NCBI GenBank assembly: GCA_016178055.1
Contig: JACOUC010000035.1
Location: forward strand, 77,325 to 141,324
DNA: 64,000 bases
Direction: 5' to 3'
Origin: Chlamydiota bacterium
GTDB taxonomy: Bacteria; Auribacterota; JACPWU01
This document shows, one piece after another, positions 5,411-62,874 of this stretch. Position numbers and translations under genes: made by a program. How positions within the stretch are numbered: the stretch's first letter is position 1; each line of letters starts with the position of its first letter. Under the pieces are notes generated by a model. That model ran no database searches and was not told the origin of the DNA. It saw only the letters and a list, made by a program, of their open reading frames with translations.

Positions 5411-6354
5411 CGTGAATCCTTTCGCCGAGATGGTCCAACCACATACTGGCCTTCAAGAGAATCCTCCATACCCGATCTACCCTTCACAAAAAACTGGTTC
5501 GTCAATTCTCCCAACCCCTCCACACGTGCCGTGTAGATATCCCCATGCTGGACAAAATGCATCCCCACCGTATCGGGCGGATTCCCTGTCAGAATAACAT
5601 CCCAAGGCTCAAGGGTGATCCAAGTCGAGAGCCAGGACACAATCTTAGGCCATTGCCAAACCTGTGCACTCGAACGAGCACGCCGAATGACCTCACCATT
5701 TTGAATCGCTTCAATCAGGCAGTCAGACGGGTCAAAATCTGTATCGATCCAAGGACCGATCGGACAGAATTGATCCGGACATTTTGATCGAGCGAGATGA
5801 TGGTCCCGATGATCCACGTTTTCTACGGTCACATCATTTCCAATGGTAAATCCTAAAATTCCTTCTCTCACCTGATTTTCTAAAATATTCTTGAGCGGTT
5901 TTTTAATCACGACTGCCAGTTCTGCTTCTCCCCACCAGGGAAGAGCTGGAAACGGGTTTATGACCGCTTCACCAGGACCGCACACACTTGTTGAGGATTT
6001 CAAAAAAACAAGAGGTTCGTTCATCATCGACGAATAGCCATCAATCCCTGGAAAATTGATCGCGATGGCTAAAATTTTATTGGGACGACACGGGGCAAGC
6101 AACGAAACCAAATCTAAAGTTCCAACTTTTTCCTTCCTTTCTACTTTGACAAGAGGATCTCCTGAAACCCGATAAACGTCAGAGCCTTCTACACATCCAT
6201 ACTCTGGATGACCCTCATTACTTTTGTATCGAACAAGTCTCAAATTTTTACTGTTAAAAAAACTCTTGGATTTTTTTTCATGCAAGTGCTTCTTGAAAAA
6301 TCTTTTGGGAGGAAGCCTCTTTAGGCTTGACAAATGCAGAGATTGTATCTTCAT
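5407..6354 (-). CDS. Fumarylacetoacetate hydrolase (FAH) family hydratase/isomerase (HpcG/HpaH-like).
   Basis: KILAIAINFPG, EAELAVVI, GFTIGNDVT and GDVILTGNP motifs. The first ~40 codons are probably not translated. A TTG at about 6235 would give MRLVRYKS.... Confidence 0.8.
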   Translation of the reverse strand: MKIQSLHLSSLKRLPPKRFFKKHLHEKKSKSFFNSKNLRLVRYKSNEGHPEYGCVEGSDVYRVSGDPLVKVERKEKVGTLDLVSLLAPCRPNKILAIAINFPGIDGYSSMMNEPLVFLKSSTSVCGPGEAVINPFPALPWWGEAELAVVIKKPLKNILENQVREGILGFTIGNDVTVENVDHRDHHLARSKCPDQFCPIGPWIDTDFDPSDCLIEAIQNGEVIRRARSSAQVWQWPKIVSWLSTWITLEPWDVILTGNPPDTVGMHFVQHGDIYTARVEGLGELTNQFFVKGRSGMEDSLEGQYVVGPSRRKDSR

Positions 6355-8416
6355 TGATGGTCGAAAGGCATTCTTTTTTCATCTCTTCGGCCCAAATCTT
6401 CAAACGTGTCCGTTCCTCTTCTGAGAAAGATAATTTCTTGAGCACTTGCTTACGCAATTCCTCCACTGAATAAACAGGCGGATCAAATTCCGAAAACCAT
6501 TCCAGAGGATCCATATTAAAATCTGTTTCACGCCCCACACGAACACACGGTACTGCAGCCAATGCAATTTCAAGAGAAGCGGTCGTAGAGGCAGCAATAA
6601 CAGCACACGCCGCTCGTGAGAGCCAATCAGAGATTGCCCCTCCTACACAAATCATGTGAGAAGGCAAAGTCTCCATTCCTAGCCCGCATTTCTCATCAGA
6701 TTTCGTCACGAGAGCGTCGAGTCCGCTTTGGATGCGAGGAAGACGACCGAGGCCATGCGAGGCATACTTTGCAGTATGTTGAGTGTGGCCGACCGAGTCT
6801 GCACGGAGAGACGAGGCGGAATCGGCGCTCGCAGTAGAAATGTGATGAGAAATGCGGGCTAACAGAGTGTGGAATCCCTTTTCCGACATCATCGGATGAC
6901 GTTTCACCCAAAATCGAATCCCCTCGTCTCGTGGGAAAGTGCTGACAAGCTTTAACAAAACTTCCAGGGTCGCCATTCTATCCAAAGATAGAACAACCAG
7001 CACGGTATTAGGCTCTGGAGCCTTTTTAGAATCCTTTGAGAAGAAGTGAAGATATCGAAAGGAGGGCCCTACCCGCAATTTACCTGAAGGAAAACCTGCC
7101 TTCTGCATCTGAGCAACCATGAATGGAGAATTACAAACAATCACATCTGGATGAGGAGAAATCGTGAGCTCTTTGGGCGTTGTGTATTTTGACATCATGA
7201 ACGGCTCCATTGCAATATAATGCTCAAACCCTACCGTCATTGTTTTGGGCATCCACTGTCGAAAGGCGATCACTTGAGGCTTTTCATTCAGCATGTTTTC
7301 AAACATATCGATAAAGATATCAATGGAGAAACCTTTCTTAGATAATTTCTTGATCAAACGATAATATAAAATGAACTTTACTCCTCCCTTATGGCAAGCC
7401 TGGTCACGACAAAATTCTCGAACAAGGGAAGAGATATTTAATCCCTCAAAGGAGTGTTTACCCAAGACCAACCAAGCCTGACGGATGACAACAGAGGCAG
7501 CCCAAACGTAATCGAAAATTGAATAAAAATCTTCAGGAATTAAATAGTGTCCTGGGTGGGCATGAAACCATTCGAAGGCACTTCGCAAAGATCTTTGAAT
7601 TTGCGAGAGCCATGGAATGACGAGCACCTCATAGCCGCGCTTCCTTAGGAGCTCCGCAAGCCCTGAAAAATAACGATCTTGAGGAATATTATTGCTAAAA
7701 TAGCTTTCGTCAATACACGTATGGATCACAACACGCTTCTGAAAACTTCCGCTTGATGAAGGGAAGCTCTCTCTCTCGCCTGCGTCACGTGCATCTTGTA
7801 GAACTTTCCGGGCATTTAAAAGAAACCGTATCCATATCCGGACCCAACGATAAAACCAACGGAATCTCGGAAGGTTTCCCTTTAAGGAACGATGAGGGCA
7901 AACACGTTTCCTCAATTCAGGAATATCGGCAAGGGCCCTCAACACAGAATCATGTTCGGCTACGATCAGAATAAGTGAAAAATCACTCTGGGTTTCGTCA
8001 AATGCAATGCGTAGATAGCACATCCGATGGAACAATGAATCAATCATGGTATCACGCTCTGCAATCTTGGAACTCCACCAGACAAAAGAATTATTTTTTT
8101 CTCCCAATTCGGCAATCCATTCCAAATAAGGTTGTTTCCAGCGTCTCGCAAGCCCTTGAAGTTTGGAGGCATAATTCACACGCTCAAAATTTTCACCTAG
8201 CAAGGACTCCCACGCTAGCATCCTCTCGTAATTTCTTCCTAAGTAAATCCACTTCTGTTTCAAGTCCGACGAAGAATGAATGATGCCCAACTTTTCTTTC
8301 AACTTTTTGCGTTGAAAATGGTCTAAATCCTCCGCCAAGAACAAATAAATTTTAGATTGCATAGGCCATGATCTCCCGCACAGGTTTTGCAAGTTCAAGT
8401 CCCGCAATCGCAGCAC
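6278..8416 (-). CDS. GT-B-like glycosyltransferase candidate with HP motif, paralog of 114..2024. It carries an in-frame 182-bp repeat-element insertion.
   Basis: 712-aa ORF. It shares GRETDFNMDPLEWFSEFDPP and the KRHPM motif with the 636-aa paralog. The extra ~61 aa (ARISHHISTASADSASSLRADSVGHTQHTAKYASHGLGRLPRIQSGLDALVTKSDEKCGL) are encoded by the element at 6680..6861. Confidence 0.7.
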   Translation of the reverse strand: MLRLRDLNLQNLCGRSWPMQSKIYLFLAEDLDHFQRKKLKEKLGIIHSSSDLKQKWIYLGRNYERMLAWESLLGENFERVNYASKLQGLARRWKQPYLEWIAELGEKNNSFVWWSSKIAERDTMIDSLFHRMCYLRIAFDETQSDFSLILIVAEHDSVLRALADIPELRKRVCPHRSLKGNLPRFRWFYRWVRIWIRFLLNARKVLQDARDAGERESFPSSSGSFQKRVVIHTCIDESYFSNNIPQDRYFSGLAELLRKRGYEVLVIPWLSQIQRSLRSAFEWFHAHPGHYLIPEDFYSIFDYVWAASVVIRQAWLVLGKHSFEGLNISSLVREFCRDQACHKGGVKFILYYRLIKKLSKKGFSIDIFIDMFENMLNEKPQVIAFRQWMPKTMTVGFEHYIAMEPFMMSKYTTPKELTISPHPDVIVCNSPFMVAQMQKAGFPSGKLRVGPSFRYLHFFSKDSKKAPEPNTVLVVLSLDRMATLEVLLKLVSTFPRDEGIRFWVKRHPMMSEKGFHTLLARISHHISTASADSASSLRADSVGHTQHTAKYASHGLGRLPRIQSGLDALVTKSDEKCGLGMETLPSHMICVGGAISDWLSRAACAVIAASTTASLEIALAAVPCVRVGRETDFNMDPLEWFSEFDPPVYSVEELRKQVLKKLSFSEEERTRLKIWAEEMKKECLSTINEDTISAFVKPKEASSQKIFQEALA
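6680..6861. mobile_element. MITE-like 182-bp element with 19-bp perfect terminal inverted repeats (TAGCCCGCATTTCTCATCA ... TGATGAGAAATGCGGGCTA), inserted in-frame in a coding gene.
   Basis: Terminal inverted repeats read directly at 6680-6698 and 6843-6861. The internal ~125 bp is about 90% identical to 45378..45520. The insert is read through in the host gene's frame. Confidence 0.6.
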
Positions 8417-42257: not shown

Positions 42258-43841
42258 TTATTTCAAAAGGGTTTCCATACTTTTCAGGAGTCCAATCTTC
42301 GAAATGGCCAGCCCTGTCCCCATGACACCCACCTTTTCAGCCGCCGCAAGATTACCGAGCAGCAAGGAAAGATCGGTAGGAAGGCCTCCTCCAAAGCAGG
42401 CAGACGTAATCCCGAGCAACGTGTCTCCAGCCCCAATACGGTCCACCACTTTATTTGCAAAGGGTGGACAACTTAAGAAACCCTCTTCTTCCCGATAAGC
42501 CAAAGCCCCTTTCACACCTCTGGTCATGACAACGGTTTCACATCCCATCCGGCGATAAAGTTGTTCAACCAGAACTTTTTCATCCTTGGTTCGTGTTCTA
42601 TATTCATGACGCAATTCCCCCTCGTGAATACAAACATAATCTGCTCGGGGATATTTTGAAATGGTGTGATAACCAATGTTAGAAGCATTTACCTGAGTAT
42701 TAACAGCTAAAAATTTTTTCTCCTTCATTAAAAACTCTACAATCTTCTCTGAAATTAAGCCATGCCCATAGTCTGCCACAATGATAAGGTCATGATCTGG
42801 TAAATGCTGCTTCAATTTTGAGAGAAGAACATCTTCTTCATCACTTGTGATCAGTTCATCATTGATTTCATAAACTCCGAAAAGCTTAGACTTCGTATAA
42901 GCATCCACATAACGCGTTTTCACAAGAGTCGGGGAATTGGATTTTGTGATGCAATCTAGATGAACATTGGGTTTCAGATGATTTAAAACAAAATCGTTTC
43001 GATCTCGAGTATTGCCCTCATAACTCGCAATGGTGATTTTCTGGCAAAAATCTGACAGGTGATTCGCGATCGCTAACACGCCCCCTGCATAAGCCTCTGT
43101 TTGAAGTTTTTGCATGACCAGCATCGGTTCTTTTGCAGACTTCCCAATGGCATTACAAAAAACATATTCATCTATAATGGCTTCACCGATTAAAAGAACT
43201 CTAAGACTGGATAATTGGCTCAAATATTCTCTAATGGCCTGGGAAGAATATTTCCCTTTGATCCGATCGAGATACTCCATTTGCTCTCTCGTATAAAGGG
43301 GAAAATGCTGATTTAAAAGAGCTGACGAGCTAAACGTAACATCATTCGTATACCGAATTTCTCCATTCACAAAGCGTACCGACTCCTCTTCGAGGCCAAT
43401 CATCCCCGTCACATCCTTTTGATGATCGCGATAGTCAGGCCCCTTTACATAAATATGAGGCTTCAAACACCGAATCGTTTCCACTGCGGTAGGCCATTCG
43501 TTGATGGCCACGTGATCAACAACATCTAAACTGGCGATCATTTCTGCGCGATGGTCCTGCGTAAAAACCGGGCGCATCGGACCCCTATTCACAAATCGGT
43601 CAGGCGTTAACGTGACCACCAAAATATCTCCCATGGCCTTGGCCTCTTTAAAATATCGCAGATGTCCCACATGTAATAAATCAAAGACTCCATGGCAGTG
43701 AACGATTTTTTTATCTTGCAAACGAAGGGCTTCAAGCTCTTGCGCTAAAACATCAAGGGTTTTAATTTTTCCATCTTTCAGTTGTAACATAAACTTATCC
43801 ACGGAGATGATCTTGAATACAATCTGCAATTTTCGAAACAA
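42258..43841 (-). CDS. Bifunctional sugar nucleotidyltransferase / PfkB-family kinase (HldE/RfaE-like, but with domain order reversed).
   Basis: N-terminal cytidylyltransferase-like HxGH (CHGVFDLLHVGHLRYF) and C-terminal ribokinase-family DRIGAGDTLLG. Confidence 0.8.
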   Translation of the reverse strand: MFRKLQIVFKIISVDKFMLQLKDGKIKTLDVLAQELEALRLQDKKIVHCHGVFDLLHVGHLRYFKEAKAMGDILVVTLTPDRFVNRGPMRPVFTQDHRAEMIASLDVVDHVAINEWPTAVETIRCLKPHIYVKGPDYRDHQKDVTGMIGLEEESVRFVNGEIRYTNDVTFSSSALLNQHFPLYTREQMEYLDRIKGKYSSQAIREYLSQLSSLRVLLIGEAIIDEYVFCNAIGKSAKEPMLVMQKLQTEAYAGGVLAIANHLSDFCQKITIASYEGNTRDRNDFVLNHLKPNVHLDCITKSNSPTLVKTRYVDAYTKSKLFGVYEINDELITSDEEDVLLSKLKQHLPDHDLIIVADYGHGLISEKIVEFLMKEKKFLAVNTQVNASNIGYHTISKYPRADYVCIHEGELRHEYRTRTKDEKVLVEQLYRRMGCETVVMTRGVKGALAYREEEGFLSCPPFANKVVDRIGAGDTLLGITSACFGGGLPTDLSLLLGNLAAAEKVGVMGTGLAISKIGLLKSMETLLK

Positions 43842-44179
43842 TCTTCATGCATTGGATACAAACCCTCTCGTCTGGCTCGAAGTTTGGAAGGACACTGCTG
43901 AGAGGATATTTTGATGGAAGATAAATCGAAATCTAGTAAATCACATTCATCTTCGGAAACAACTATTTCTTTTCCTGCTTTTCTAAGCAACATTATTAAT
44001 TCATGTATGTTATGAGTCTTCTTTAAACCCATCGACAATTCTATACACAACGCCTTGAGATATTTTTCTGAAGATTGTTGTAAGTTTTGAAGACAGGGGT
44101 TGTAAAGATGGCTTTTAAGCAATATCTTTGCTGCCTCAAGATTCTCTTCAGCATATTTGGAGCCAATCATGAGTTTCAT
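43778..44179 (-). CDS. HEPN-domain protein (toxin-like partner of the upstream nucleotidyltransferase).
   Basis: 133-aa helical protein with a KKTHNIHEL R/K-x4-6-H-like motif, overlapping the MNT gene by 4 nt. Confidence 0.55.
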   Translation of the reverse strand: MKLMIGSKYAEENLEAAKILLKSHLYNPCLQNLQQSSEKYLKALCIELSMGLKKTHNIHELIMLLRKAGKEIVVSEDECDLLDFDLSSIKISSQQCPSKLRARREGLYPMHEDCFENCRLYSRSSPWISLCYN

Positions 44180-44481
44180 CGTTCATAGACAATCTCCCCC
44201 CTATTTATTTCCGATAAAAAGAAATCATTTTGTACATGGGGTCTTACCGGGATGATGTCTACAGCGATTTTAAGAAGCACAGGACGTATTTGCTTTCTAT
44301 ATTTTAAAGCTAGTTGTAGATATGATTTGTTGCTGCTTTGAAATATTGCTACATCCATGTCATGCGGATTTTCTGATTTTAAAAATGAACCAAATATAAC
44401 AATACGCTGAATCTCTTTGTCGGATGAAAGACAGGAAACAAGTTCTTTCGTCAATTCTTTTTTTAAAGGGGCCGTAAACAT
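44176..44481 (-). CDS. Minimal nucleotidyltransferase (MNT) domain protein.
   Basis: IVIFGSFLKSENPHDMDVAIF (GS...D.D). Confidence 0.7.
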   Translation of the reverse strand: MFTAPLKKELTKELVSCLSSDKEIQRIVIFGSFLKSENPHDMDVAIFQSSNKSYLQLALKYRKQIRPVLLKIAVDIIPVRPHVQNDFFLSEINRGEIVYER

Positions 44482-44543
44482 ATTTTTCTAATCCACGTTT
44501 GCCAAAAATTACTCCATTCTCCTAAAACAAACTTCCTAATCTG

Positions 44544-45580
44544 TTAACCCAGATGCTTAAACCAATCTTTCGTCGCAACTTCAATAGAATCTTTATCCCA
44601 GAGCGGGGCATCCCGCCACGCGTCAATGTGATCCAGCATGATGCGAACACCCTTTTGAAAGGAAACTTTGGGTTGCCAGTGTAAAATCCGCTTTATTTTA
44701 TTGATATCCGCAAAGGTACAATTGGGTTCTCCAGGTCGTTTGGGAATATGAATCACATCCCCGCCCAATAATTCTACCAACTCGTTCACACGATAAGTAT
44801 TCCCAGACCCCACATTAAAAATCTCGCCTGACACATTTGATTCGGCTGCCCGAAGAAGTGCATCCGCTACATCCGTGACAAAAGTAAAATCTCTGGTTTG
44901 ATTACCATCTCCCACAACGGTGAAGGGTTTCCCCGCTAATTTCTGGGCCAGAAAAACACCAAAAACCGCCCCATAAGTTCCTGTTGTCCTAGACCGAGGA
45001 CCATACACATTAAAAAATCGAAGAGAAACGGCAGGCATCTTGTAAGTCTTCTCCCAGTGAAGCACATATTGTTCACCCAAATATTTGGTTAAAGCATAAG
45101 GGTACATCGGTCGAATCGGCGCCGTTTCTGGCGTAGGATATTGATCGGGAATTCCATAACAAGAAGAAGAAGCTACGTAGATAAAGCGTTTGACACCTGA
45201 CAAGCGTGCTGCCTCTAAAACGGAGACTGTTCCATCGACATTTGATCGATGATATTTGAGAGGTTCTTGAATTGAAGGGACAATATCAGCCAAGGCAGCT
45301 AAATGAAAAACCCAGTCTATGTTTTGAAATAAAGGCCTTATGTCAATCACATTTTCGACACCCATTTTATAAATCTTTAGCCCGCATTTCTCATCAGATT
45401 TCGTCGCGAGAGCGCCGAGTCCGCTTTGGATGCGAGGAAGACGACCGAGGCCATGCGAGGCATACTTTACAGTATGTTGAGCGTGGCCGACCGAGTCTGA
45501 CGAAGCAGACGAGGCGGAAGCAGACGTTCGACCAGATGACTTCCGATAAAACCAGCTCCTCCTGTAACCAAGCAACGCAT
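44544..45580 (-). pseudogene. NAD-dependent epimerase/dehydratase gene disrupted by a truncated copy of the MITE-like element.
   Basis: ATG at 45580 gives MRCLVTGGAGFIGSHLVERLL, then runs into the element and hits TAA. The rest of the protein (KIYKMGVENVIDIRPLF...HLAA...YxxxK...) is in a different frame, and about 35 residues of the Rossmann region are replaced. Confidence 0.6.
45378..45520. mobile_element. Truncated second copy of the MITE-like element (left terminal inverted repeat present, right one absent).
   Basis: tagcccgcatttctcatcagatttcgtcgcgagagcgccgagtccgctttggatgcgaggaagacgaccgaggccatgcgaggcatacttt... is about 90% identical to 6680..6820. Confidence 0.55.
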
Positions 45581-45581
45581 C

Positions 45582-46940
45582 TTAATAAACTCCCTCAACA
45601 GCTGTTCTCTCACCGAGAAAATCTGTACTCCAAGCTAGACGAGGTCGAACAGTACCACACCATCTCCCATAATATTCTTTCCTCATTTCACCTGTATCGT
45701 GAACATTAAATGACAGAACATAATCTTGAAGAATTTGTGTATCCGAAATCCCTTTACCAATAATGGCCGCAATACTATAGAGTCCTTCATTTAAAAAATT
45801 ACCGGGTATGATACATACAGTCTGAAACAGACCCACCGGATAAGGTTGTCCGCTCCATGGGTCTTCGGTCAATGAAATGGATCTATGATTACTAGAAGAA
45901 AGAACGTAAGTTCCGACCGGATCTCGTAGCCAAATTGCTGCATACAATTTTGTTTGCGATTTCAAATTCCAATAGGTAATCTCAATTCGAATTTCCTTCG
46001 ATATATCTACATCTGCCGTAGGTCCTTCCACCCCATCCTGAAAAATTCGTACTGAATGAAGACGAACAAGGTCATTCCCGGGAGCATTCGCAACATCTGG
46101 CCAAACCATCTCTCCTCCTAAAGAGCGAGCCACGGCCAGATACTCCTGAACAACTTCAGCGGCAGATCCATTTTTAACCACTTCTCCTTCTTTTAAGAGA
46201 AGAGCTCTCGGGCACAAATTCATAATGCTCGGCATATTGTGAGATACAATCACAACCGTGCGCCCCTCTTTCGCAACATCCCCCATTTTTCCCAAACACT
46301 TCTTCTGAAATTCGGCGTCGCCAACAGCAAGAACCTCATCCACCAAAAGCACCTCAGGCTCCAGATGTGCCGCAACAGCAAACGCTAACCGCACATACAT
46401 TCCGCTTGAATAGCGTTTGACAGGCGTATCGATAAACTTCTCCACTTCAGCAAAAGCAACAATTTCATCAAATTTTCTTCGAATTTCGATTCGTTTCATC
46501 CCCATGATCGCGCCATTGAGAAAAATATTTTCTCGCCCCGTAAGCTCTGGATGGAAGCCCGTCCCCACTTCCAAGAGGCTTCGAACACGACCGTGAATTT
46601 CCGCCCTGCCCTCTGTGGGCTCTGTAATGCGGGAAAGAATTTTGAGGAGCGTACTTTTCCCGGCGCCATTGCGACCAATGACACCAACGACCTCGCCTTG
46701 CTTGATTTCAAAAGAGACATCTTTCAACGCCCAAATTTCATTATCGTTCAAAGGTTCAAAGGTTGAAGAGTTCAAAGATTTTCCAAAGTTCTGTAATCTT
46801 CTGATCTTCGAGTTGGCGAAACGAAAAGGGGCTGTAGCAAGCTGCGTTAAACGATCGCGAAAACTATAGTAACACTCCCGCTCCCCAATTTTGTAGAGCT
46901 TCCCTACATTTTCAACCCGAATGGCGATGTTGTCAGACAT
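45582..46940 (-). CDS. wzt: O-antigen/polysaccharide ABC exporter ATP-binding protein (Wzt-like, with a C-terminal glycan-binding extension).
   Basis: Walker A GRNGAGKST, signature SGM, Walker B LLVDEVLAVGD, and a ~200-aa C-terminal beta-rich domain. Confidence 0.85.
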   Translation of the reverse strand: MSDNIAIRVENVGKLYKIGERECYYSFRDRLTQLATAPFRFANSKIRRLQNFGKSLNSSTFEPLNDNEIWALKDVSFEIKQGEVVGVIGRNGAGKSTLLKILSRITEPTEGRAEIHGRVRSLLEVGTGFHPELTGRENIFLNGAIMGMKRIEIRRKFDEIVAFAEVEKFIDTPVKRYSSGMYVRLAFAVAAHLEPEVLLVDEVLAVGDAEFQKKCLGKMGDVAKEGRTVVIVSHNMPSIMNLCPRALLLKEGEVVKNGSAAEVVQEYLAVARSLGGEMVWPDVANAPGNDLVRLHSVRIFQDGVEGPTADVDISKEIRIEITYWNLKSQTKLYAAIWLRDPVGTYVLSSSNHRSISLTEDPWSGQPYPVGLFQTVCIIPGNFLNEGLYSIAAIIGKGISDTQILQDYVLSFNVHDTGEMRKEYYGRWCGTVRPRLAWSTDFLGERTAVEGVY

Positions 46941-48082: not shown

Positions 48083-48110
48083 TTACACCCCATCCACAAA
48101 AAATCGGTCC
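48083..48110. repeat. Degenerate copy 4 of the wzm 3'-end motif (TTACACCCCATCCACAAAAAATCGGTCC).
   Basis: Aligns with 50005..50036. Confidence 0.5.
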
Positions 48111-48116
48111 ATCTTT

Positions 48117-48539
48117 TCAAACTTCCAAGAACACCGTCTTAATCCCCAATGCATTTGCGGATTTTGAAAAGGCCCGGTCTGCGGTCAAGGGGGTTAAATC
48201 TTCTGACACGGCAACGGCCAAATGCAGCGCATCGAAACTTCTCAGAGGCGTGCTAAACTCTCCAAGCCAATCCCTGGCCAGCCGATAATGGTGAGTCTCA
48301 ATGGCAACCTTCAAATAAAAACTTCCCTCAGCATGAGAAAGATATCTTGCAAGAACTCGCCTGCCATCTGTGGACTGCATTTGTCCTTCACGAATCTTTC
48401 TGGACACCGCTGAAAATAATTCTACCTCCGTCAAAGGGCTGATGACAGATTGTCCCCTCATGAGATAATGTTCCACTTTATCGCTCAAAGCTTCAGGGCA
48501 ATAGTAGGCGACCAAAACGCTCGTATCGATATAAAACAT
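48117..48539 (-). CDS. vapC: PIN-domain ribonuclease toxin (VapC-like).
   Basis: MFYIDTSVLVAY and the DALHLAVA acidic residues. Confidence 0.8.
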   Translation of the reverse strand: MFYIDTSVLVAYYCPEALSDKVEHYLMRGQSVISPLTEVELFSAVSRKIREGQMQSTDGRRVLARYLSHAEGSFYLKVAIETHHYRLARDWLGEFSTPLRSFDALHLAVAVSEDLTPLTADRAFSKSANALGIKTVFLEV

Positions 48540-48854: not shown

Positions 48855-48886
48855 TTACACTACATCCGCAAAAAAACGCTCCGTTC
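48855..48886. repeat. Copy 3 of the wzm 3'-end motif (TTACACTACATCCGCAAAAAAACGCTCCGTTCC).
   Basis: Aligns with 50005..50036. Confidence 0.55.
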
Positions 48887-48916
48887 CTTTCTGATATTCA
48901 AAATGTGGTACCTCCC

Positions 48917-49361: not shown

Positions 49362-49388
49362 TTACACCACATCCGCAAAAAATAGTTC
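49362..49388. repeat. Copy 2 of the wzm 3'-end motif (TTACACCACATCCGCAAAAAATAGTTC).
   Basis: Aligns with 50005..50036. Confidence 0.55.
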
Positions 49389-49411
49389 TTTTCTTCTAAA
49401 GTAAGACATAT

Positions 49412-49786: not shown

Positions 49787-49919
49787 AGGCATATGCACTT
49801 GACTTAAAGATGTCGTCCATTTGTAGTCACCCCATTTATGGGGCCATGCATGGATTGCCCGATAAATCGGGCGACTACGCTTGACGGATCAAGAATACTT
49901 GAGTCAAGTGTATATGCCT
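49787..49919. repeat. 133-bp nested palindromic element. Outer inverted repeat AGGCATATGCACTTGACTT/AAGTCAAGTGTATATGCCT, with a 56-bp core GTAGTC-[hairpin]-CATGCATGG-[hairpin]-GACTAC.
   Basis: Read directly. Inner hairpins are GCCCCATTTATGGGGC and GCCCGATAAATCGGGC. Related to the element at 62492..62774. Confidence 0.55.
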
Positions 49920-50004: not shown

Positions 50005-50036
50005 TTACACCACATCCGCAAAAAAGCGCTCCGTCC
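50005..50036. repeat. Master copy of the motif TTACACCACATCCGCAAAAAAGCGCTCCGTCC, which is the last 9 codons plus stop of wzm.
   Basis: Encodes RTERFFADVV* of the Wzm permease. Confidence 0.6.
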
Positions 50037-50859
50037 TACGAAAATAAAAAAGTCCGCCCACAAAAATAATAACGGCCACAGCAACAGAAATTCCTAAAGA
50101 GCCCCAATGAATGGGTTGATGTGCGAGGAAACAGGCCCGATGGGCCTCGATTAAACCACTCATGGGATTGAGCATCAAAAGCCAGCGATATTTTTCTGGC
50201 ACCATTGAAGCGGGATAAATGACCGGCGTTGCGAAGAGCATCAACTGAATAAAAAAGGGAAGCGCATATTGAATGTCCCGATATTTCACATTAAGCGCGG
50301 AAAGCCAAAGCCCCCACCCTGTCGCAGCGATCATCGAGAAGAAAACAATCGCGGGGAGCATGAGAAAAGACACACTGGGAGGAAAGCCGTAGTAAAACAT
50401 CATGCCCAGGAGAATAACCACCGCAATGGCATAGTCCATCAATCCCGAAAGAGTGGCTGAAAGAGGGATCACAAGTCGTGGGAAATACACCTTGGTCAAG
50501 AGATTTGAACTCCCCACGAGACTCGCCCCTGAGTGAGAGAGGGCTCCTGAAAAATAAGTCCAAAGAAGAAGCCCTGAATAAGAAAAAATAGGATAAGGAA
50601 CGCCATCCGAGGGAAGGCGGGCAATTTTTCCAAAGAAAATGGTGAATACGACCATGCTAAAGAAAGGTTGGATAATCGCCCAAAGAGCCCCCAAAACCGT
50701 TTGCTTATACCTGACCTTGATATCCCGCCAGGTCAGAAAATAGAGAAGCTCCCTAAAATCCCACAAGGCCTTCCAATCAATGGGAACCCATCCCTTGGAA
50801 GAACGAATGATGATTTTGGGAATAGAAGAAACCGATGAAGCTGATATTTCCTGAGCCAT
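50005..50859 (-). CDS. wzm: ABC-2 type polysaccharide exporter permease (Wzm-like).
   Basis: About 6 predicted TM helices and ABC-2 family features in a 284-aa protein. Confidence 0.85.
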   Translation of the reverse strand: MAQEISASSVSSIPKIIIRSSKGWVPIDWKALWDFRELLYFLTWRDIKVRYKQTVLGALWAIIQPFFSMVVFTIFFGKIARLPSDGVPYPIFSYSGLLLWTYFSGALSHSGASLVGSSNLLTKVYFPRLVIPLSATLSGLMDYAIAVVILLGMMFYYGFPPSVSFLMLPAIVFFSMIAATGWGLWLSALNVKYRDIQYALPFFIQLMLFATPVIYPASMVPEKYRWLLMLNPMSGLIEAHRACFLAHQPIHWGSLGISVAVAVIIFVGGLFYFRRTERFFADVV

Positions 50860-62492: not shown

Positions 62493-62774
62493 GCTTTTTC
62501 TGTAGTCGCCCGATTTATCCCCCCACCCCATATGGATGACTGGCCTTTCCTGATGAGATTTGGTTTACTCATTATGAAGGGTTCAACCAAAAAACAGCAG
62601 CTAAAAAAAGAAAGGAACAGTCACCCATCCATTCTAATCCAGTTGTTATCTTTAGCACGTTCGTAAGCTTATGACTCGTGCATTGATCGCTAAACAATCC
62701 CGCCACCTTCGATAGATTGGGTGGGGGGATAAATCGGACAATTCATGCAACAGCCCCATAAATGGGGCGACTAC
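62492..62774. repeat. 283-bp element bounded by inverted repeats: GTAGTCGCCCGATTTATCCCCCCACCC ... GGGTGGGGGGATAAATCGG...GCCCCATAAATGGGGCGACTAC.
   Basis: Shares its terminal structure with the 56-bp core at 49823..49878. Confidence 0.5.
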
Positions 62775-62874
62775 AAAATGAGCCTCACTCCCATATCAAA
62801 GGCTATCATAAAAACAGATTCATTTCAATTCCCTGAATGATATTGCTACTCAGGTATTGGGAGTCGCTCAAAGA

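Follow-up and report, generated by a model that had tools for sequence, protein, structure and literature searches.

Probable recent inactivation of a chlamydial epimerase gene by insertion of an IS1380-type MITE and a later deletion at its flank

Insertion sequences of the IS1380 family, which include IS1247, ISPme1 and ISEcp1, have termini that begin with CC (as catalogued in ISfinder). The eukaryotic transposon piggyBac targets TTAA and its termini start with CCC, and Rickettsia palindromic elements (RPEs) are palindromic repeats that are inserted in frame and read through by the host ORFs. IS1247 measures 1672 bp, with inverted repeats of 16/13 bp and a 5-bp direct repeat (PMC3281130), and IS1380 transposases serve as the prokaryotic outgroup of piggyBac (PMC10813416). 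Bacterial MITEs, for their part, can interrupt genes, create fusions and accompany deletions (PMC4853749).

The repeat element described here is present in two copies in a 64-kb stretch of chlamydial DNA (hereafter the window) and resembles each of these systems in part. Its termini are shared by two complete relatives (loci L058 and L116) that encode transposases matching the IS1380-family model NF033539, and the length of these relatives (1756 and 1731 bp), their short terminal repeats and the 4-bp target duplication all fall within the published range of the family. In contrast to IS1380 members, the window copies belong to a 176-bp element without a transposase and with a specific tetranucleotide target, YTAG/YTAR; moreover, the best-known IS1380 members come from Proteobacteria and resistance plasmids, not from Chlamydiae. 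Like the Correia elements of Neisseria and the MITEs of Thiomargarita that disrupt hupL, the element is small and multi-copy, has terminal inverted repeats, duplicates its target and can fold into a hairpin over its entire length, but it differs from them in terminus and parent IS, and its exact 19-nt terminus recurs across many phyla. With piggyBac it shares a 4-bp duplication of palindromic type (TTAA there, YTAR here) and termini starting with CCC; however, it is prokaryotic and its terminal sequence is different. The comparison with RPEs concerns copy 1, a palindrome that lengthens a variable loop of a conserved protein by 60 codons in frame and through which the host ORF reads. The element bears no sequence relationship to RPEs, and differs from them further in its clear IS parentage and its target duplication. 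Most chlamydial copies appear to lie between genes, and the lengths seen in relatives do not always come in multiples of three; where RPEs are predominantly in-frame genic insertions, only copy 1, of the chlamydial copies examined, lies deep inside an ORF.

Copy 2 lies within a minus-strand gene for a sugar-nucleotide epimerase of the extended-SDR type (NAD-dependent epimerase/dehydratase). In agreement with the original prediction, the ATG at 45580 opens a canonical epimerase N-terminus and the remainder of the protein is encoded in another frame, as both the reading frames and the Pfam profile PF01370 confirm. The first 21 codons (45518..45580, minus strand; MRCLVTGGAGFIGSHLVERLL) include GGAGFIG at codons 7-13, and the GxxGxxG motif of extended SDRs is therefore present. 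The frame then enters the element in a closed frame, continues as PPRLLRQTRSATLNIL and ends at a TAA (45469-45467), which yields a 37-codon ORF (45467..45580, minus strand) and interrupts the Rossmann region as had been proposed. A second minus-strand frame is open from 45575 to 44544 and holds KIYKMGVENVIDIRPLF followed by the rest of the epimerase; this 3' part (44544..45380, minus strand, 278 codons plus stop) is out of frame with the ATG and carries the catalytic YxxxK motif as YALTK, invariant in an alignment with homologues. From ATG to stop the gene spans 1037 nt, or 2 modulo 3, which accounts for the frameshift, and there is no single continuous epimerase frame. Against PF01370, the N-terminal frame covers positions 2-19 and the second frame positions 43-240, while positions 20-42 are found in neither; PDB homologues (UDP-glucose 4-epimerases, for example 7ys8) likewise align over their full length apart from the stretch that is in neither frame. 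The source record annotates only a 273-aa product (P0001, "GDP-mannose 4,6-dehydratase") that starts at an internal Met and lacks both the GxxGxxG nucleotide-binding motif and beta1-beta2; an exact-product lookup for P0001 returned no record.

Two neighbours on the minus strand serve as synteny anchors: the upstream gene for a Wzt-like ABC-transporter ATPase (45582..46940), whose stop lies 1 nt from the epimerase ATG, and the downstream cytidylyltransferase/PfkB kinase gene (42258..43841). Between the epimerase and the kinase gene there is also a pair of genes (43778-44481; 101 and 133 aa) that look nucleotidyltransferase/HEPN-like on inspection of their sequences. The orthologous locus (L121, 6987-7118) is without this pair and has a spacer of about 130 bp in its place; the pair is probably another recent insertion adjoining the disrupted gene.

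The full-length copy 1 of the element (6679..6862, minus strand) consists of TTAG (6862-6859), a 176-bp element (6858-6683) and CTAG (6682-6679), the two sides of its target duplication thus differing by one base. Its terminal inverted repeats have 25-nt arms that are 96% complementary, its termini begin CCCGCATTTCTCATCA and the element proper starts with CCC. As DNA, the whole length is predicted to fold into a hairpin of -44.9 kcal/mol (z = -6.6). GC content is 0.55-0.60 in the element and about 0.35-0.45 in the flanks. The 176 bp contain no transposase gene, and the sole open frame is a 60-codon read-through without a start of its own. That the epimerase contains a truncated second copy of this element, as originally predicted, is borne out by a 53-mer of copy 2 that matches 6747-6799 with 2 mismatches (0 matches expected from shuffles) and by 97% identity between the copies over 122 nt. 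About 143 bp had been assigned to it at 45378..45520, with one inverted repeat; the single repeat stands, and the bounds are now refined to 45381..45517 (minus strand), or 137-139 of about 176 bp, where the junction end at 45517 is uncertain by +/-2 nt through a TT ambiguity. Copy 2 keeps only the low-coordinate terminal repeat (45381-45405) and is without its first 37-39 bp. Next to the preserved end comes CTAA (45377..45380, minus strand), the one surviving 4-bp target-site duplication of this copy, in which CTA is a Leu codon equivalent to residue ~50 of the orthologue. Taken by its sequence features, the window repeat is best classified as a MITE of an IS1380-type element. A ribozyme reading, prompted by CUGAUGAG...GAAA in the termini, was rejected: at a permissive threshold only two C/D-box noise matches appeared (E = 0.2-0.7), and at gathering score Rfam gave no match to a hammerhead, another ribozyme or a structured RNA in the window.

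The extent of the damage became clear from an intact orthologue. The closest full-length relative of the window epimerase is P0002, a 328-aa protein present in two related groundwater Chlamydiae MAGs, where the gene order matches that of the window (ABC ATPase, epimerase, cytidylyltransferase/PfkB kinase). The N-terminal 21 codons of the window gene agree with P0002 at 19 of 21 residues, and the surviving part is 89% identical. Critically, both DNA and protein alignments show that orthologue codons 22-49 (28-29 codons, TEGHRVTVLDNLSSGRISNLEKASENPR, the NAD-binding beta2 region) are absent from the window gene, in which codons 1-21 are followed by 137-139 bp of element and the epimerase sequence picks up again at the Leu that corresponds to residue ~50 of P0002. 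In extended SDRs an acidic residue at the end of the beta2 strand (V.VLDN) binds the NAD ribose. This feature is missing from the window gene together with profile positions 20-42 and orthologue residues 22-49. On the element side, the loss comprises the first 37-39 bp, and with them the entire terminal repeat at the upstream end; the target duplication on that side of copy 2 is gone as well, bringing the deletion to a total of about 127 bp. The downstream end of the element is intact, and the CTAA next to it is acceptable as a YTAR target. The proposed comparison with the orthologous epimerase of relatives thus confirmed a disrupted gene and also uncovered lost codons. The lesion is accordingly not the simple insertion that had been supposed, and copies 1 and 2 do not form the suggested before-and-after pair, since the true "before" is the orthologous gene.

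Over the 275 surviving codons compared with P0002, dN/dS is 0.078 with 89% amino-acid identity and no internal stops, and dN/dS of the neighbouring genes is 0.117 and 0.103. The low ratio and the lack of stops mean that inactivation was recent relative to the divergence of the lineages, or that the lesion is an artefact. Of the two outcomes offered in the original prediction, these values agree with the recent pseudogene. On the sequence, the lesion appears to be that of an ordinary recent pseudogene, and the annotated 273-aa locus should be treated as one.

We consider it highly probable that this recent pseudogene arose through insertion of an IS1380-type MITE, followed by a deletion of about 127 bp. 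To judge from the termini shared with complete IS1380-family elements, transposases of that family would mobilise the 176-bp MITE in trans. One copy would have inserted at CTAA, in a variable loop after the beta2/alphaC region of the epimerase gene, and in the very codon phase in which the element has no stops. The insertion site and the frame can be read from the DNA; we infer that the inserted copy was full-length and tolerated. A later deletion would then have taken 28 gene codons, with beta2 and its acidic residue, along with 37-39 bp from the start of the element and the target duplication upstream of it. As the number of bases deleted does not divide by three, the 21-codon N-terminus now runs into the closed element frame and stops after 37 codons. 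The remaining one-ended element would no longer be able to transpose. While the loss itself emerges from the orthologue comparison, the order of events and the mechanism of the deletion are our reconstruction, the candidate mechanisms being illegitimate recombination of the microhomology type, slippage, or abortive excision followed by repair. A full-length element in an intact epimerase, which would represent the intermediate state, was not found, so that we infer the two-step history from one end state.

A 10-nt direct repeat, CGTCTGCTTC, straddles the deletion junction (45502..45526, minus strand), with copies at 45526-45517 and 45511-45502 and a period of 15 bp. The first copy is formed by the gene's own R-L-L codons and the second is native to the element. 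CGTCTGCTTC occurs only twice in the 64-kb window, and a shared word of at least 9 nt appeared in 269 of 20,000 shuffles, which makes the repeat modestly unlikely by chance. A simple repeat-mediated deletion between the two copies was discarded, as it would leave one copy, yet both are present.

The truncated copy and the gene loss might instead stem from one transposase-mediated event: either a transposition that was one-ended or aberrant, or an abortive excision in which the ends were resected and joined. IS1380-family elements are known to mobilise adjacent DNA by one-ended transposition (TMos; PMC3281130). A single event would suit a deletion that begins inside the element, takes exactly one terminus and is adjoined by 9-10 nt of homology. 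However, no target duplication surrounds the truncated unit (CTGCTT precedes the junction and CTAA stands on the opposite side), on which ground one-ended transposition was rejected; classical IS-mediated adjacent deletions keep the IS end that is lost here, and no transposase gene was seen in the window or in the sampled relatives. We therefore regard a single event as unlikely. The prospects of an assembly or sequencing artefact are poorer still. In that case the frameshift, or the whole upstream junction, would be an error made at a repeated element in a short-read MAG contig, and the true genome would have a single uninterrupted ORF, or else an intact gene into which a full element is inserted in frame. 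The element is indeed multi-copy, and elsewhere many matches to its terminus come within about 50-145 nt of the end of a contig; a low dN/dS is also what one would expect of a live gene; and no independent assembly of the locus was found in the collections searched. A metagenome scan with the element/gene junction gave no match, and with the 5' region of the gene it gave only two unrelated high-GC epimerases. But the junction joins a unique gene to mid-element sequence with an overlap of at most 2 nt, and the longest shared word (9-10 nt) is too short to mislead a de Bruijn assembler. Nor can a single-base error explain the loss of 28 codons and 37-39 bp of element. A one-base correction that restores the frame had been named as what would overturn the disruption, and one base inserted anywhere in 45467-45575 does create a continuous 345-codon ORF; the outcome is nevertheless uninformative, because the frame-corrected product still lacks Pfam positions 20-42, with beta2 and the NAD-binding acidic residue, and has 47 element-encoded residues in place of 28 essential ones.

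The same missing residues weigh on the idea that the epimerase is still expressed and functional, either as the 273-aa internal-Met product or by programmed frameshifting across 45467-45575. This idea draws on the 273-aa CDS annotated in the source record (P0001, "GDP-mannose 4,6-dehydratase"), on the fact that both frames are open over about 108 nt, and on the strong apparent constraint on the remainder (dN/dS 0.078). Yet the 273-aa product has neither GxxGxxG nor beta1-beta2, and even a frameshifted fusion would be without the acidic residue of beta2, so that the unusual start or frameshift invoked in the original prediction would not rescue the enzyme. By eye, neither a Shine-Dalgarno-like sequence ahead of the internal ATG nor a recognisable slippery site is apparent, and the intact orthologue P0002 has normal architecture. 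We find it very hard to credit a functional gene at this locus, and retain the recent pseudogene produced by MITE insertion and later deletion.

The element belongs to a widely scattered family. Its terminal 19-mer TAGCCCGCATTTCTCATCA was found exactly in more than 120 contigs (loci L001-L120 among the matches listed), where about 4 contigs would be expected by chance, as estimated from the size of the collection. Among the matches listed, the hosts are Acidobacteriota, Planctomycetota, Desulfobulbia, Gammaproteobacteria, Chlamydiae, Omnitrophota, Verrucomicrobiota and others, and an inverted partner was found for 61 of 121 occurrences, mostly 65-330 bp away, with interiors that vary by lineage. 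Three pairs of termini, 1731, 1756 and 2250 bp apart, each enclose a single ORF. L116 (1731 bp) and L058 (1756 bp) are complete relatives from other phyla in which the element's termini bracket an IS1380-family transposase gene, and the same arrangement is seen in L026. Two of the three long enclosed ORFs were scored with the NF033539 model, and reached 385.8 and 377.6 bits, where the cut-off is 180 (E = 2e-115 and 6e-113). With the L058 protein as query, tblastn detected related sequence in L026 and L070; no tblastn hit to an IS1380 transposase was obtained in the window or in the chlamydial loci sampled.

The 4-bp flanks are identical on both sides in 32 of 58 elements (CTAG in 20, TTAG in 11), a number reached in 0 of 10,000 permutations, and the element makes a 4-bp YTAG/YTAR target duplication. 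A 2-bp TA duplication, as in IS630 and Correia elements, was rejected, since whichever base precedes TAG on one side co-varies with the one that precedes TA on the other. A related chlamydial MAG contains 13 loci with a terminus match and the window two copies; the homologues of the host gene of copy 1 all lack the element, as does the orthologous epimerase. Many TAGCCCGCATTTCTCATCA matches are located about 50-145 nt from contig ends, which suggests that repeats of this MITE family break MAG assemblies.

Copy 1 falls in a subfamily of about 176 bp (175-178 bp) with interior identities of 62-74%, represented in Terriglobia, Acidobacteriota, Gammaproteobacteria, Pirellulales, Bryobacterales and Chlamydiae. 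It was aligned as window 6683-6858 with L098, L099, L094, L021, L034, L011 and L101, and the same alignment also took in L076, L015, L008, L082, L009 and L052. The whole-length hairpin of the subfamily shows compensatory changes at 19 of 44 predicted pairs, which may reflect maintenance of a palindrome at the DNA level or selection on RNA or DNA structure. A second palindromic repeat family, with core GTAGTCGCCCCATTTATGGGGC / GCCCGATAAATCGGGCGACTACAAG, was also observed, both in the window (49820-49844, 62493-62531 and 62716-62777) and nested inside IS1380-type MITE copies of the related chlamydial MAG (L031, L113).

We then considered the reading frame that the two window copies share. Copies 1 and 2 do have the peptide frame DSVGH.QHT.KYASHGLGRLPRIQSGL in common, as had been noticed, and exactly one of the six frames of copy 1 is stop-free; the other two frames on that strand are closed, by a TAG belonging to the duplication or terminus and by a TGATGA of the terminal repeat. 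Because an in-frame TAR is a stop, coding YTAR sites occur in two phases only, and 318 of the 628 YTAR sites (51%) in the 45 long ORFs of the window are in the permissive YTA|R phase. The odds of sharing the frame are thus about one in two, and any copy tolerated for a time would be expected to lie in it; this is not the striking coincidence it had been taken for.

The host gene of copy 1 (HYS07_04890; 6278..8362, minus strand) encodes a 694-aa protein with a weak GT4-like hit. The net gain due to copy 1 is +180 bp, or 60 codons, in frame, and the insert sits in a variable loop between conserved blocks. Homologues of HYS07_04890 (606-643 aa, including a paralogue in the same window) are all without the 60-residue insert. 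None of the other 11 chlamydial copies examined shows comparable read-through; they look intergenic, and two other copies lie near ORF 5' ends. The paralogous genes at 6278-8362 (minus strand) and ~145-2000 (about 630-690 aa) give products P0121 and P0141, which are 42-43% identical, with the 60 in-frame codons of MITE origin confined to P0121. Their paralogy also accounts for repeat family D1 (145-371 and 6312-6538).

More tentatively, and with considerable doubt, these repeats could together form an undescribed cross-phylum MITE family (Chlamydiae, Acidobacteriota, Gammaproteobacteria, Planctomycetota, Bryobacterales) of near-constant length, with a compensatorily kept hairpin and a single stop-free frame. 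Such a family would be shaped, like RPEs, for tolerance in genes, here at YTA|R Leu codons, and would have spread horizontally with IS1380 transposases of piggyBac-like YTAR targeting. A literature search with the terminal sequence returned only an unrelated primer match, and the family did not turn up under IS1380 and MITE or under MITEs in Chlamydiae, in literature represented mostly by titles and abstracts.

For the host, the lesion would mean that one step of a polysaccharide cluster (of O-antigen or LPS-core type) was recently lost or is carried out by a paralogue. The locus offers a clean, datable case of how MITE insertion and a later flanking deletion may erode genes in environmental chlamydiae. 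The more interesting by-product, beyond the pseudogene, is that a MITE family of IS1380 type came to light which is widely distributed and has a defined target, YTAG, and since its copies often lie at contig ends, repeat-aware annotation and MAG assembly would gain from recognising IS1380-type MITEs.

A separate motif of about 43 nt, beginning TTACACCACATCCGCAAAAAA, is present in five copies around the epimerase locus (44488-44530, 48083-48125, 48855-48897, 49362-49404 and 50005-50047). Small minus-strand genes have their start codons directly after the copies at 44488-44530 and 48083-48125, and genes of this kind flank each of the remaining copies. The adjoining genes include the nucleotidyltransferase/HEPN pair and a PIN/antitoxin pair. 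The motif resembles a promoter, operator or cassette boundary common to toxin-antitoxin modules that have become lodged in the polysaccharide cluster.
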